Shown here: piece after piece, positions 28,601 through 32,063 of the stretch
Position numbering within the stretch: position 1 is the stretch's first letter
Layout: the number at the start of each line of letters is the position of its first letter
Assembly (NCBI GenBank): GCA_049968255.1
Contig: JBMFRB010000003.1
Location: 199,385-263,384 of the forward strand
Source of the DNA: Candidatus Sumerlaeaceae bacterium
GTDB lineage: Bacteria; Sumerlaeota; Sumerlaeia; Sumerlaeales; Sumerlaeaceae
Direction: 5' to 3'
Length of the DNA: 64,000 nucleotides
Program-made: the position numbers and the translations under genes
Notes under the pieces: model-generated
What the model was told of the DNA's origin: nothing
The model's database searches: none
Seen by the model: the letters and a program-made list of their open reading frames with translations, nothing else

Positions 28601-31600
28601 CGACGACGAACTTGAAACACTACGGCGCGCTGTGGCACTGGTGCCGACGGAACGCCAAGTGCGGTTGCGCCTAGTGAATGCTCTCATTGAGAGAGGCGAT
28701 CGTGAAGCGGCGGTCCTCCAGCTCGAGGATCTCGCAGCCGCACTCATGACGAGCAAAGACTATGAGAACGCGCTCGAAGTTCTCAACCGGATCATCGAAG
28801 AATTTCCCTCGCGCCTTGGCGCACGACGCATGCGGGCAGAGGTCTACTCCGCATTGGGCCAGAACAAGGCTGCGCAAGAGGATCTCAATGTCTTTTATGT
28901 GAAAAGTTTGCTCCGCCAGGCGGATGACTATCACACGAAAAACGATTTCACACGCGAGGCTGCTACCCTTCGCGAGGCTCTAAATATTATTCCATCAGAC
29001 GAAGAACTCCTGCGTCGCATTCGCTCAGTAGAGTTTGAGGCGGGCGAACTCGATCGGGCGTGCTCAACGACGCTCGAATTAGCTAAGCTTTTGACCTGTC
29101 AGAATCGTCCCGATGATGCGCTGGAACTGCTGCGCGAAACGCACACGCGGGTGCCAGACAACCTTGTCGTTGCTGAGCAGTTGTTCGAAACGCTTGCAGC
29201 GAGGCGTTTGAACGAGGAAGCCGCGATGCTGGGAGAGACGCTTGCCGAACTCTACCGTGCCGCTGGCGAGAGCGGCAAAGCCCTCGCTGCGTTCAGTAGG
29301 GCTGTGGATCTTGCCTCGGATAGCGAGCAGGCGCGCCTGCGCTTCGCCCAGTTCCTCGAGCGCGCCGGTGAAACCGCCCAAGCGGTGGCGACATATTTGG
29401 CCTTGGCACGGCAAGCCATTGAACGAAGCGATTTGAGTTTGGCTCAAGTGCACTACGAGCAAGCTTTGCGTATCGACCCATCGTGCGTGCCTGCGCATGA
29501 GGGAATGGCCGAAGTGGCGGCACGTCGCGGCAATCACCCAGAGCAAGCGGTGTGGCTACAAAAACTTGCCGAGATTTGGGTCGGCCAAAAGGCCACCGAA
29601 GAAGCCATCGACGCTTTGCGTCGCGCAATTTACGCAGACCCCAGGCGAATAGATCTGCGGCAGCATCTCATTGAGCTGCTGGAGAAAGCACAACGGCCAG
29701 CCGATGCTGTGGCAGAGCTTCATGCGCTGGCCGATGTGCTGACACAGGAAGGCCGCCAGGCCGAAGCGCTCGCGGCCGAAGAACGAGCTGTAGCCTTGTG
29801 CCCAAAAGATCCGAAGTCGGCTCGGCGTCTGGCGGAAATGCTTATCATGCTCAACGAAGTCGAGCGTGGTGTGAATGAGTTCGAACGGCTCAGCGGCCTG
29901 TATGCGGAGCTCGGCGAGTATCCGCAGGCGCTAGCTGTGCTCGAGGAAGCACAAACGCTTGCGCCGGCCCGCCTAAGCGTGCGCCGATTGAAAGCCGAGA
30001 TCTACGAGCGTATGGGCGAGACCGCCCAGGCTGAAGAGGAACGTCGCCAGTTCGAAGTGGCCAAATCGCTGCAGGAGGCAGAAGTCGCTCGCGAGCGCAA
30101 CGACTTCAAAGCTGAGAAGCGGGCGCTGCGCAAGGCACTCGAGGTGGCCCCTCAGGATGAAGGCGTGTGGCTTTTGCTCATTCGTTGTCATCGCGACCTC
30201 GGGGATACTCAGGCCGAGGTGGATGCGTATCTAAAATTGGCGGAAGTGCAGCGTGAGAAACACGGGCTCGAGAAGGCTATGGCCACACTCGAACAGGCGT
30301 ATGCCCAACAGCCGAATGAAGAGCGCCTTGTGCAGCGCCTGTTCGAGTTAGCGCGCGAGCGTCGCGACGACGTCGCCGTGCGCCGATATGGCGAGCGCCT
30401 CATCGAGCTAGCACAGAACAGGACGGACGCAGTCGAGCGCACCATCACGGTGTACGATGAGCTTCTGAGTTACGCTCCGCTGGATGCTGATCTCTATTTG
30501 GAAGCGGCTGATCATTGTGCTCGTGTGGCGCGTCCGGCCGAAGCGCTAGAGCGACTTCATCGGGGCGCGGACCTGTTCGCAGAGGCTGAGCGTTGGGCTG
30601 ATGCCGAGCGGCTTCTGCTGCGCACCCTCGAGATGAACCCCAAATCCACCGAAAGCCTTGCGCGATTGGTGCGTCTTTATGAGCGCGTGGGACGTACGGA
30701 TGAATTCGAGCGGCGGTTACTGGAACTGGCCAAAGCTTACGACGAAAACGGCGAGCGTCCCCATGCCATCGAGACCGTGCGCCGCCTCACACTCGTCTCT
30801 CCAGACAATGTCGAGGCGCGCCGGTACTTGGTACGTTTACTCGCTGCTGCGGAACAAAAACATGCAGCCATCGAGGAACAGCTCGCGCTAGTTTTCCTTC
30901 TTCGCCAGCAGGGAGCGCTTTCGGACGCCGTGGAGGCAGCACGCGATGCCGTGGCTATGAGCGAAGGCAGCGACCGTGCAAGGCGAGCTCTGGCCGAGTG
31001 CTTGTTGGCCGCTGGAAATACCGATGCAGCAAACGCAGAACTGGAGGATCTCGCAAAATCATGCGTCGAGCGAGGTGACCTGCAGGAGGCGTTGCAAGTG
31101 CTCGACGAAATCATTGAGCGCACCCCCCAGCGCATGAGCACTCGTGTCCTGCGTGCCGAAGTTTACGTGAAGCTCGGTCAGGCCGAACGGGCGCTCGAAG
31201 AGTATCGTCAGATATCAACCGCAGTAGCGGCTGGAGCCATGACCTCAGTGGCCGCACCGAGTGCACCCGCCATGCCCTCGCTGCAGATTGTGTCCGAATA
31301 CGATTTCGAGCATTTCGTTGTGGGGGCTAACAATAATTTCGCCTATGCGACCGCCCTTGCCGTGGCACGTGCCCCAGCGCAAGCCTATAATCCGCTGTTC
31401 ATTTATAGCGATGTGGGACTCGGCAAAACGCATCTTGTGAACGCCATCGCCAACCACATTCTTCGCGAGAACCCAAACGTCCGCATCATCTACACAAATT
31501 CGGAGGACTTTACGGCTGAAGTCGTCGAGGCTATCCAGACCAACACAATCAACCAATTCCGCGCGAAGTACAAATCCGTGGATCTCCTGATTGTGGACGA

Positions 31601-32063
31601 CGTCCAGTTCCTTGCGGGCAAGGAACGCGCGCAGGAAGAATTCTTTCACATCTTCAATGCACTCTTCCAAGCAAAAAAACAAATCGTCATCACAAGCGAT
31701 CGGCCGCCGAAGGACATAGCAAGGCTCGAAAACAGGTTACTTTCGCGCTTTGGCGCTGGGGTGATTGTGGACATTGCCCCGCCTGATCTCGAAACGCGCA
31801 TCGCCATTCTCAACCGAGAAATTGAGCGCGGCGAAGTTGATATTCCCGACGCGGTCGTCCAACTCATCGCCGAAACCATTGATACCAATGTGCGCGAGCT
31901 CAAAGGCGCGTTGAACCAAGTCATGGCGATGCACACGATCCAAGGCAAAGAGATCAACACAGCAAACGTTCGGCAGATGTTGGAGTCACTTTACGCGCGT
32001 CCAACTGCCGTGGAGAAGCAGCCTCCGCAAGAATCGGCGAAAGATAAAAAGAAAAAAAGTTAG
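25605..32063 (+). CDS. Giant multidomain protein: N-terminal CHC2 (DnaG-primase-type) zinc finger, long TPR-like repeat array, C-terminal DnaA-type AAA+ ATPase module (no DnaA domain IV)
   Basis: Uninterrupted 2152-aa ORF, RBS-like AGGA 8 nt upstream of the ATG. N-terminus: CPIHRE...FRCMYSLCKGAAGGTLVELYALAQDIPLEKAVEELAG (primase zinc-binding-domain pattern). Middle: about 1800 aa of Ala/Leu/Glu/Arg-rich helical repeats with TPR-like periodicity. C-terminus: YDFEHFVVGANNNFAYATALAVA...NPLFIYSDVGLGKTHL (Walker A), LLIVDDVQFLAGKERAQEEFFHIFNAL (Walker B), RLLSRFGAGVIVDIAPPDLETRIAIL (box VII Arg finger), NVRELKGAL (sensor II). Ends in a K-rich tail with no HTH domain IV. Confidence 0.85.
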   Translation: MGIYSEKVIRDLNEQLDPRAVLELINYHSDKLQESGETLRGFCPIHRETVFRTLIIDKSKRTFRCMYSLCKGAAGGTLVELYALAQDIPLEKAVEELAGHFQIEVRMTADPEFLEKQAEVAENYLELGFYEDAEKVLREIVEADSNYERAHRGLLEVYKHLGNTEALGEHHGILAQLLIQRGERLAAYEHVKAWAEYQPDAPKAHYLLAEYLREQGDLEAALEEFMAAADLYAAKEDFQAAIDAYRQADSLRLDVVDVVPHVLQIYEQMGKPTEAVAFLSERAEASLLHADFARSAQLLEQALELAPNDPSLRARLCEIAILADTGGDWLPRVFEWAQWFVESGMPEKAVQVYERVLGAQPTNEEAVERLRALYAAMGRTEDALGLRVRAARVALDAKEFATARKELQAILEEKPDHAAALELLAEVNLAAGHRKEAADCLARLARVCVANRDFSKAVSQMERVLSLVPDDPRFLLDRAEILENWASTGNVRARQQAVEAFEALGDRYAQTDPQKACDMYRRSEACAPPSAQLLLKQARCQAKLRAFDAAREYLQRACDELVAVGQPDVAVEAAREIAAMAPHDHGLQRYLIELLEVIGRIPEAVEVAMLQADAAAQRAEKERVFEYLNYALALDPDHIPAIEALALHYHGTGDIASYCDVLLRLANANEQRGNITGAVAALERVVDERPEDVMALGRLANLHLNLGNAAKSRAYRLELAQIHHRRGALESEREILRALLEEDPEEENVLAALIDCEFGLGNREQACARAVELARLQMKRGFAAQARTTLEKAIAKEPDDLGVNRLLFELVRQLGSAQETVERGLHLVELLQLYEQLDDAVAVFEQTTEADPNNFELFRKYVAFLREIGRTEETLEKLFAIARRLRASGQFEEAEKALLEIEQSRPLDIPELEEALSLYEQWGKPEQFAQRAIELARTYETSGQDKKTLTLLRRALKVTNGHPEVRRELAEAYARQGRPADAVRELVQLADAFVGAGKRDDELETLRRAVALVPTERQVRLRLVNALIERGDREAAVLQLEDLAAALMTSKDYENALEVLNRIIEEFPSRLGARRMRAEVYSALGQNKAAQEDLNVFYVKSLLRQADDYHTKNDFTREAATLREALNIIPSDEELLRRIRSVEFEAGELDRACSTTLELAKLLTCQNRPDDALELLRETHTRVPDNLVVAEQLFETLAARRLNEEAAMLGETLAELYRAAGESGKALAAFSRAVDLASDSEQARLRFAQFLERAGETAQAVATYLALARQAIERSDLSLAQVHYEQALRIDPSCVPAHEGMAEVAARRGNHPEQAVWLQKLAEIWVGQKATEEAIDALRRAIYADPRRIDLRQHLIELLEKAQRPADAVAELHALADVLTQEGRQAEALAAEERAVALCPKDPKSARRLAEMLIMLNEVERGVNEFERLSGLYAELGEYPQALAVLEEAQTLAPARLSVRRLKAEIYERMGETAQAEEERRQFEVAKSLQEAEVARERNDFKAEKRALRKALEVAPQDEGVWLLLIRCHRDLGDTQAEVDAYLKLAEVQREKHGLEKAMATLEQAYAQQPNEERLVQRLFELARERRDDVAVRRYGERLIELAQNRTDAVERTITVYDELLSYAPLDADLYLEAADHCARVARPAEALERLHRGADLFAEAERWADAERLLLRTLEMNPKSTESLARLVRLYERVGRTDEFERRLLELAKAYDENGERPHAIETVRRLTLVSPDNVEARRYLVRLLAAAEQKHAAIEEQLALVFLLRQQGALSDAVEAARDAVAMSEGSDRARRALAECLLAAGNTDAANAELEDLAKSCVERGDLQEALQVLDEIIERTPQRMSTRVLRAEVYVKLGQAERALEEYRQISTAVAAGAMTSVAAPSAPAMPSLQIVSEYDFEHFVVGANNNFAYATALAVARAPAQAYNPLFIYSDVGLGKTHLVNAIANHILRENPNVRIIYTNSEDFTAEVVEAIQTNTINQFRAKYKSVDLLIVDDVQFLAGKERAQEEFFHIFNALFQAKKQIVITSDRPPKDIARLENRLLSRFGAGVIVDIAPPDLETRIAILNREIERGEVDIPDAVVQLIAETIDTNVRELKGALNQVMAMHTIQGKEINTANVRQMLESLYARPTAVEKQPPQESAKDKKKKS

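Follow-up and report, generated by a model that had tools for sequence, protein, structure and literature searches.

A complete DnaA domain III at the end of a giant tetratricopeptide repeat protein widespread in Sumerlaeota

A DnaA domain III at the C-terminus of a 2152-residue protein

The window analysed here is a stretch of 64,000 nucleotides from the genome of a Candidatus Sumerlaeaceae bacterium (assembly GCA_049968255.1, contig JBMFRB010000003.1, positions 199,385 to 263,384 of the forward strand), and the subject of this study is the gene that occupies positions 25605-32063 on its plus strand, a single uninterrupted open reading frame (ORF) without stops or frameshifts that encodes a protein of 2152 amino acids (aa). 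All on this strand, the protein combines a zinc-binding domain of the CHC2 type known from DnaG primase (25620-25928, aa ~6-108), a tetratricopeptide repeat (TPR) solenoid matched by many TPR families (25932-31211, aa ~110-1869), a flexible linker rich in Ala, Pro and Ser that joins the TPR region to an AAA+ module (31212-31289, aa ~1870-1895), a domain III of the initiator DnaA consisting of the AAA+ part IIIa and the lid IIIb (31290-31994, aa 1896-2130) and, after IIIb, a 22-residue tail ending in KDKKKKS (31995-32060). The segment 31290-32063, from nucleotide 31290 in codon 1896 to the stop codon at 32061-32063, encodes aa 1896-2152 of the ORF, and it was to this segment that an earlier note, made from the letters alone, had drawn attention as a DnaA module tethered, unlike Hda, to a very large TPR scaffold; the TPR matches over aa ~110-1869 bear out that description. 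What the earlier note missed is the DnaG-type zinc-binding domain at the N-terminus, the conservation of the protein across a whole phylum, the slow evolution of its AAA+ module and a P-loop that starts with S-D.

The affiliation of the module with DnaA is supported by sequence profiles and by structure. Pfam Bac_DnaA (PF00308) matches aa 1898-2056 (E 1.7e-67), with 223 bits when the whole protein is scanned and 227 bits for the fragment excised from it, and the DnaA model TIGR00362 gives 347.5 bits (E 1.3e-103) over its positions 100-340 of 437, that is over the span of domain III only. In a sequence search of the Protein Data Bank (PDB), domain III of B. subtilis DnaA came out best (8bv3, E 7e-80), followed by the DnaA proteins of T. 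maritima and A. aeolicus, while E. coli Hda was far weaker (E 2e-9). An AlphaFold2 model of aa 1880-2152, computed from a 60-row alignment, shows the module with a mean predicted local distance difference test (pLDDT) of 92.3 and the linker as coil of lower pLDDT. Foldseek superposes this model on 8bv3_A, the B. subtilis DnaA, with a template modelling (TM) score of 0.92 (target-normalised), a root-mean-square deviation of 2.0 Å and 52% identity over 234 columns, and ranks Hda structures below DnaA (TM 0.53-0.73). The initiator-specific motif (ISM; 31500-31574, aa ~1966-1978 and 1982-1990), whose presence the earlier note had left to structural modelling, is seen in the model as two confidently predicted helices, assigned by DSSP to residues 87-99 and 103-111 of the fragment, which follow strand beta2 and precede that of Walker B, and the module has no deletion in this region, whereas E. 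coli Hda has a 12-residue gap there.

Motifs were read from an alignment that set the module against DnaA and Hda of E. coli and the DnaA of the genome itself, and their conservation from a profile of 131 long-form homologs. The four motifs on which the earlier note had relied, namely Walker A, Walker B, the box VII arginine finger and sensor II, are all seen in the ORF, with key residues that are invariant or nearly so. Walker A reads SDVGLGKTHL (aa 1935-1944, the P-loop SDVGLGKT lying at 31407-31430, aa 1935-1942), and its K1941 and T1942 are kept in 131/131 homologs; in Walker B, LLIVDDVQF (31584-31610, aa 1994-2002), D1998 is found in 129 of the 131 and D1999 in all of them. The TSDR of the sensor I region (VITSDRPP, 31686-31709, aa 2028-2035) has an invariant D2032 and R2033 (131/131), and the same holds for R2044 and R2048 of box VII (31731-31763, aa 2043-2053), which correspond to R281 and R285 of E. 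coli and belong to a sequence running from aa 2043 as NRLLSRFGAGV...DIAPPDLETRIAIL, as well as for R2097 of sensor II (NVRELKGAL, 31887-31913, aa 2095-2103), the equivalent of E. coli R334. In E. coli DnaA, V211 and R245 contact single-stranded DNA; the equivalent of the former is V or I in 129/131 homologs and that of the latter is R in 117/131. On the strength of this residue conservation, we infer that the module would bind and hydrolyse ATP and oligomerise.

One may wonder whether the module is a decaying relic, or else an artefact of assembly or gene calling, for instance an ORF of chimeric origin or a dnaA cut short. Some pipelines indeed label its relatives "chromosomal replication initiator protein DnaA", and the excised fragment stands barely above the TIGR00362 cut-off of 343.9 bits. 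Against this, the same architecture is found in more than 130 proteins, the full-length homologs measuring 1360-2150 aa and coming from many independent assemblies, two single-contig genomes among them; the ORF is free of stops and frameshifts, the catalytic residues are invariant, and the genome has a separate and complete dnaA. An artefact or a relic is effectively excluded. In keeping with the intact AAA+ unit that had been proposed, the segment is a complete DnaA domain III (IIIa and lid IIIb) under selection, with residues conserved in 131 homologs and a fold that matches the solved domain III of DnaA.

The remaining parts of DnaA are missing, as the earlier note had stated for domains I and II and for the helix-turn-helix of domain IV. 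The single match to domain IV (PF08299) in the genome belongs to the canonical dnaA on contig C2, and none lies in the 2152-aa protein; Pfam likewise finds neither domain I (DnaA_N) nor domain II at the N-terminus, where the CHC2 zinc ribbon and the TPR repeats stand. Since only 45 nucleotides separate the stop codon from a convergent radical-SAM gene, there is no room for a displaced domain IV, and because this domain is absent DnaA boxes would be unreadable for the module. The protein had also been said to end about 45 aa past sensor II in a Lys-rich tail. The KDKKKKS tail exists, but of the ~49 residues that follow sensor II, ~27 still belong to the lid IIIb as its final helices and ~22 make up the tail, and a K/R-rich tail is confined to the closest relatives (8/131), most homologs ending 1-6 residues past IIIb. 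Judged from the homologs, such a Lys-rich ending is particular to the nearest relatives and does not characterise the family.

Distribution and ancestry of the long form

A search of 5.8 billion proteins gave 222 long proteins with this C-terminal module, and those that carry a name come mostly from Candidatus Sumerlaeota or Sumerlaeaceae. Two homologs are labelled otherwise, as belonging to metagenome-assembled genomes (MAGs) of Hydrogenedentota and Poribacteria (P0017 and P0107); since the tree places them next to genomes that GTDB puts in the phylum of the window (L020 and L023), to which they are nearly identical or sister, these names are probably mislabels. Within the phylum, we surveyed 75 species genomes from 59 genera and 18 families for PF00308 matches in open frames. 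The long form, that is PF00308 in a frame of 860-2160 aa, is present in at least 61 of the 75 genomes and in 17 of the 18 families of Sumerlaeota, and a family-specific profile of the N-terminal domain matches 72 of the 75. A PF00308 match in a frame of ~420-600 aa, taken as the canonical DnaA, accompanies the long form in each genome counted as having it, and occurs in nearly all of the 75, the exception being one genome that is 66% complete. A related-locus search made with the single protein returned two close Sumerlaeota MAGs only.

In a quick maximum-likelihood tree of 108 rows of domain III, the long forms make up one clade inside the DnaA radiation, with a support of 100 in the Shimodaira-Hasegawa-like approximate likelihood ratio test (SH-aLRT), and the branches of Hda and DnaC are very long, at ~7.8 substitutions per site; the DnaA affiliation suggested by the earlier note was thus upheld by the phylogeny. 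The canonical DnaAs of Sumerlaeota form a separate clade (93) nested among the DnaAs of other bacteria. Although the free quick tree keeps the two clades apart, a topology in which they are sisters is not rejected (approximately unbiased test, p 0.62), the constrained tree being 7.3 log-likelihood units better. The paralog may stem from an ancient duplication within the phylum or from a foreign source.

The pace at which the module changes could be compared directly with that of the initiator in nine genomes that have both genes. The modules are on average as close to one another (58.8% identity) as the DnaAs are (60.2%), and the pairwise values are correlated (Spearman 0.52), a figure whose p-value is not to be leaned on, related genomes not being independent. 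These similar identities and their correlation fit vertical inheritance and a constraint as strong as that on the initiator; by this yardstick the module changes at the same slow pace as domain III in DnaA itself. The best explanation is a paralog fixed across Sumerlaeota in which domains I, II and IV were either lost or never present.

Almost every DnaA is built of four domains, and the known relative with domain III only is Hda. Full-text searches of the literature found no study of the family described here, whose members are labelled in databases "DnaA/Hda family protein", "tetratricopeptide repeat protein" or "chromosomal replication initiator protein DnaA"; the family is uncharacterised and is a new architectural variant among DnaA paralogs. 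Where the last of these labels is used, the prediction of origins and the counting of marker genes in genomes of Sumerlaeota can be led astray.

The zinc-binding domain, the scaffold and the possible role of the protein

The N-terminal ~105 aa bring a second domain of interest into the protein. When excised, this domain is recognised by PF01807 (CHC2) with 28.4 bits (cut-off 24.9), its AlphaFold2 model reaches a pLDDT of 90, and its sole significant Foldseek matches in the PDB are the zinc-binding domains of primases (1d0q, TM 0.72, and 2au3), with which it shares the fold and the CHC2 ligand pattern. The presumed ligands are C43, H46, C65 and C70. The pattern C-P-x-H...C-x4-C is kept in 112/131 homologs, the second Cys pair having been lost in one subclade, and the C-x4-C form of this pair is a departure from DnaG. 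So is the rest of the protein: the DnaG model TIGR01391 matches over its positions 3-123 of 414 only, at 27.7-29 bits where the cut-off is 283.6, and neither by this model nor by Pfam does the protein have a TOPRIM/RNA-polymerase domain or a helicase-binding domain, the remainder being TPR. The zinc-binding domain of primase contacts the single-stranded DNA template. As the N-terminal fold matches only such domains, it constitutes, after the AAA+ module, a second domain linking the protein to replication.

Between the two ends lie ~1750 aa of TPR (for example TPR_19 at 303 bits). The usual length in the family is ~1360 aa, and the solenoid in the subclade of the window is ~780 aa longer. The 2150-aa form P0001 aligns twice to its 1373-aa relative P0030 (aa 2-1093 with 3-1099, and aa 1100-2131 with 370-1370), so that a duplication of a central TPR block of ~730 aa is indicated; the comparison indicates an apparently old event, and the duplication is no longer detectable in self-comparison at E 1e-8. 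The linker that follows, of ~25 aa, is in the homologs low in complexity and similar in length, with a variable sequence.

The question arises as to what such a protein might do. The genome, 95.75% complete, encodes a canonical DnaA of 479 aa (L001:1090-2529) with all four domains including domain IV, a DnaG and a DnaC/DnaI-like loader, so the long protein supplements the usual set and does not stand in for any of it. A whole phylum keeps a second DnaA-grade ATPase, under a constraint equal to that on the initiator, without a box reader and wired to a primase zinc-binding domain across over a thousand residues of TPR. It is tempting to propose that the protein assembles in an ATP-dependent manner, with itself or in a DnaA oligomer, on unwound DNA and delivers its scaffold there, a proposal to which we would give about an even chance. 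The module would first bind ATP and then stack head to tail through its arginine finger, in the manner of DnaA, with itself or into the DnaA oligomer; the ISM region would contact single-stranded DNA, DnaA boxes not being read, and the TPR platform and the zinc-binding domain would thereby reach unwound DNA. The most plausible site is the replication origin, where the protein might serve as an accessory or regulatory factor of initiation. The likeness to DnaA extends over the domain III fold with its lid and two-helix ISM, the Walker A Lys and Thr, Walker B, sensor I, the box VII arginines, sensor II and the V211 and R245 equivalents, with 52% identity to domain III of B. subtilis and 42% to the genome's own DnaA. 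A predicted complex of the module with the domain III of its own DnaA, ATP and Mg scored 0.28 (mark 0.32) in a run made without controls, and is not used as evidence. Should the protein indeed join the filament of DnaA, or the origin once melted, it would represent a new type of initiation factor and a natural experiment on what domain III is capable of without domain IV.

The protein departs from DnaA by the missing domains I, II and IV, by having its module fused to 1000-1750 aa of TPR and a zinc-binding domain of the primase type, and by forming a clade of its own. Several observations weigh against the proposal made above. The first two residues of the P-loop are S-D instead of the G-G of DnaA (of the 131 homologs, 93 have S, 31 have A and 7 have G at the first position, and 115 have D at the second), so that nucleotide handling may differ from that of DnaA. 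No conserved replication-gene neighbour was found at the loci compared. The same genome further encodes two paralogs that consist of zinc-binding domain and TPR only, without AAA+, both on the minus strand: one of 2603 aa, whose zinc-binding domain is 42% identical to that studied here (G000:C1:93864-101675, the same as L042:1365-9176), and one of 481 aa, with 28% identity (G000:C10:47958-49403, the same as L043:1459-2904). Counterparts of these turn up throughout the phylum, with frame lengths of 2600-3100 aa and ~490-540 aa, most genomes having the set, and the neighbours of the two paralogs (rpoA/L17 and EngA) are uninformative. Since the scaffold exists without an AAA+ module in the same genome, its role need not be replication. 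In addition, orphan domain III modules are fused to MshEN, to a T2SSE ATPase or to DUF835 in other uncultured bacteria, and the module is therefore evidently reusable outside classical initiation.

The absence of replication genes nearby, the AAA+-less paralogs and these fusions would all suit a DnaA-independent ATP switch, in which nucleotide-driven oligomerisation would serve phylum-specific zinc-binding and TPR scaffolds in a process other than replication initiation. We regard such a switch as possible, if rather doubtful, given that the equivalents of the residues with which DnaA touches single-stranded DNA are kept, that both recognisable non-repeat domains derive from replication-initiation proteins, namely DnaA and primase, and that the module evolves at the rate of the domain III of a bona fide initiator.

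Another possibility is suggested by Hda, which the earlier note had put forward as a precedent. The comparison holds for the architecture, Hda and HdaA being DnaA-related AAA+ proteins that lack domain IV and possess an arginine finger. By analogy, the long protein would be a negative regulator that docks on ATP-DnaA, triggers the hydrolysis of the DnaA-bound ATP through its arginine finger, which is invariant in the homologs, and turns the initiator off after initiation; as neither an Hda above the family cut-off nor YabA was found in this genome at its 95.75% completeness, such a regulator would otherwise be unaccounted for. The module itself is, however, DnaA proper. The Hda model TIGR03420 gives 97.8 bits, against a cut-off of 194.8 and the 347 bits of the DnaA model, the ISM has its full length without the deletion of Hda, and the TM scores to Hda lie much below those to DnaA. 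Hda is moreover a protein of ~230-250 aa with a clamp-binding motif at its N-terminus. A search of the long proteins for such a motif, which the earlier note had suggested, was negative, QL[SD]LF being found in 0/131 homologs and none near the termini; the looser QLxLx[LFIM] occurs in 18/131, scattered inside the TPR region and never near the termini, at roughly chance frequency (~0.4 per protein expected). An Hda-like function thus appears improbable to us.

Two further systems invite comparison. DnaI and DnaC resemble the long protein in having an N-terminal zinc-binding domain and a C-terminal AAA+ of the initiator clade with an ISM, a layout shared by the genome's own loader (L003:1258-1953). 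They differ from it in that the AAA+ is here of the DnaA type, the zinc-binding domain is of the primase CHC2 type and ~1750 aa of TPR stand in between; the models for loaders of the DnaC, DnaI and IstB kinds remain far below their cut-offs (IS21_help_AAA 59 bits against 200, DnaI 42 against 228, DnaC 18 against 357). As for STAND NTPases, the NTPase found here belongs to the initiator clade of AAA+ and the order is reversed, with the repeats first and the ATPase last; STAND-related Pfam families (NPHP3_N, ATPase_2) score 20-21 bits, below their cut-offs.

Carrying the idea of assembly on unwound DNA further, one could picture a two-component DnaA system, in which the canonical DnaA reads the origin while a box-blind paralog co-polymerises on the melted strand and couples opening to a primase-like reader of single-stranded DNA mounted on a giant TPR platform. 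More broadly, domain III modules devoid of domain IV would constitute an unrecognised class of DnaA-derived, ATP-driven assembly switches, to which, beside the form described here, the doubles linked to MshEN, those in tandem and the fusions to T2SSE may belong. This wider picture is tentative, and we consider it less probable than not by a good measure.

Genomic surroundings and other orphan domain III proteins

In the window, the gene has housekeeping genes as neighbours: it is preceded by uppS, cdsA and a radical-SAM/BATS gene, and is followed on the other strand by the radical-SAM gene mentioned above, an ORF of 601 aa with no Pfam match (33275-35080, minus strand) and tsaE. This downstream set is shared by the closest complete genome only (G066, where the 601-aa ORF has 51% identity). 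In four other families the gene directly before the long one is nadC, with panB further upstream in three of these. As synteny is limited to the closest complete genome and nadC takes the upstream place elsewhere, the gene appears to stand alone, without a functional partner. In L031 an ORF of 602 aa, which has no Pfam match either, is found close to the long gene; by sequence it groups with ORFs of the loci L033 and L035. Scans of the window for tRNA genes and Rfam families gave no matches. A search of sequencing runs listed no RNA run, while one DNA run from a hot-spring metagenome contains 0.32 of the words sampled and may represent the sample of origin.

DnaA-box-like 9-mers (TTATCCACA, with at most one mismatch) are more frequent in the window than expected, with 13 occurrences against 5.5 and with none of 100 shuffles reaching 13; they are dispersed. 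No cluster of them stands upstream of the long gene, where the 550-nucleotide intergenic region has one 9-mer with one mismatch (25267-25275). Along the 396-kb contig, cumulative GC skew traces a Lambda whose one peak falls where the long gene ends at its 3' side (window ~30600-34600, C3:230-234 kb). Genes converge at this peak, which looks like a replication terminus, an inversion or an assembly joint. A linkage to the terminus as a property of the family was considered and rejected, the orthologs in the single-contig genomes G066 and G069 showing no skew switch, that is no peak of cumulative GC skew within 200 kb on either side.

The helicase loader of the genome lies within G000:C1:78585-79911 (L003:627-1953), where a DnaC/DnaI-like AAA+ protein of 231 aa carries a Cys-rich segment at its N-terminus. 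It is preceded, and partly overlapped, by an ORF of 224 aa of unknown family that might be a candidate for a DnaD/DnaB-like co-loader.

Orphan fusions of domain III are also encountered in metagenomic proteins, and no published description of these architectures was found. Their domain III is 35-57% identical to that of the long form and they have no Pfam match to domain IV; they differ from it in their partner domains and by their separate branches in the tree, none of them showing the layout of zinc-binding domain and TPR. Five proteins of 1870-2000 aa (P0008, P0009, P0011, P0013 and P0016) have an N-terminal MshEN and two DnaA domain III modules, without a PF08299 match; a helical region of ~1250 aa rich in Glu, Ala and Arg lies between the modules, which form two well-supported sister groups in the tree. 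Domain III without a Pfam domain IV is further found in P0121-P0125, P0127, P0129, P0175, P0180, P0185 and P0205. Their types include tandem domain III proteins of ~570-700 aa (for example P0121 and P0122), a fusion to a T2SSE ATPase (P0180) and one to DUF835 (P0175), and a further type is made of long proteins in which domain III is followed by zinc ribbons.

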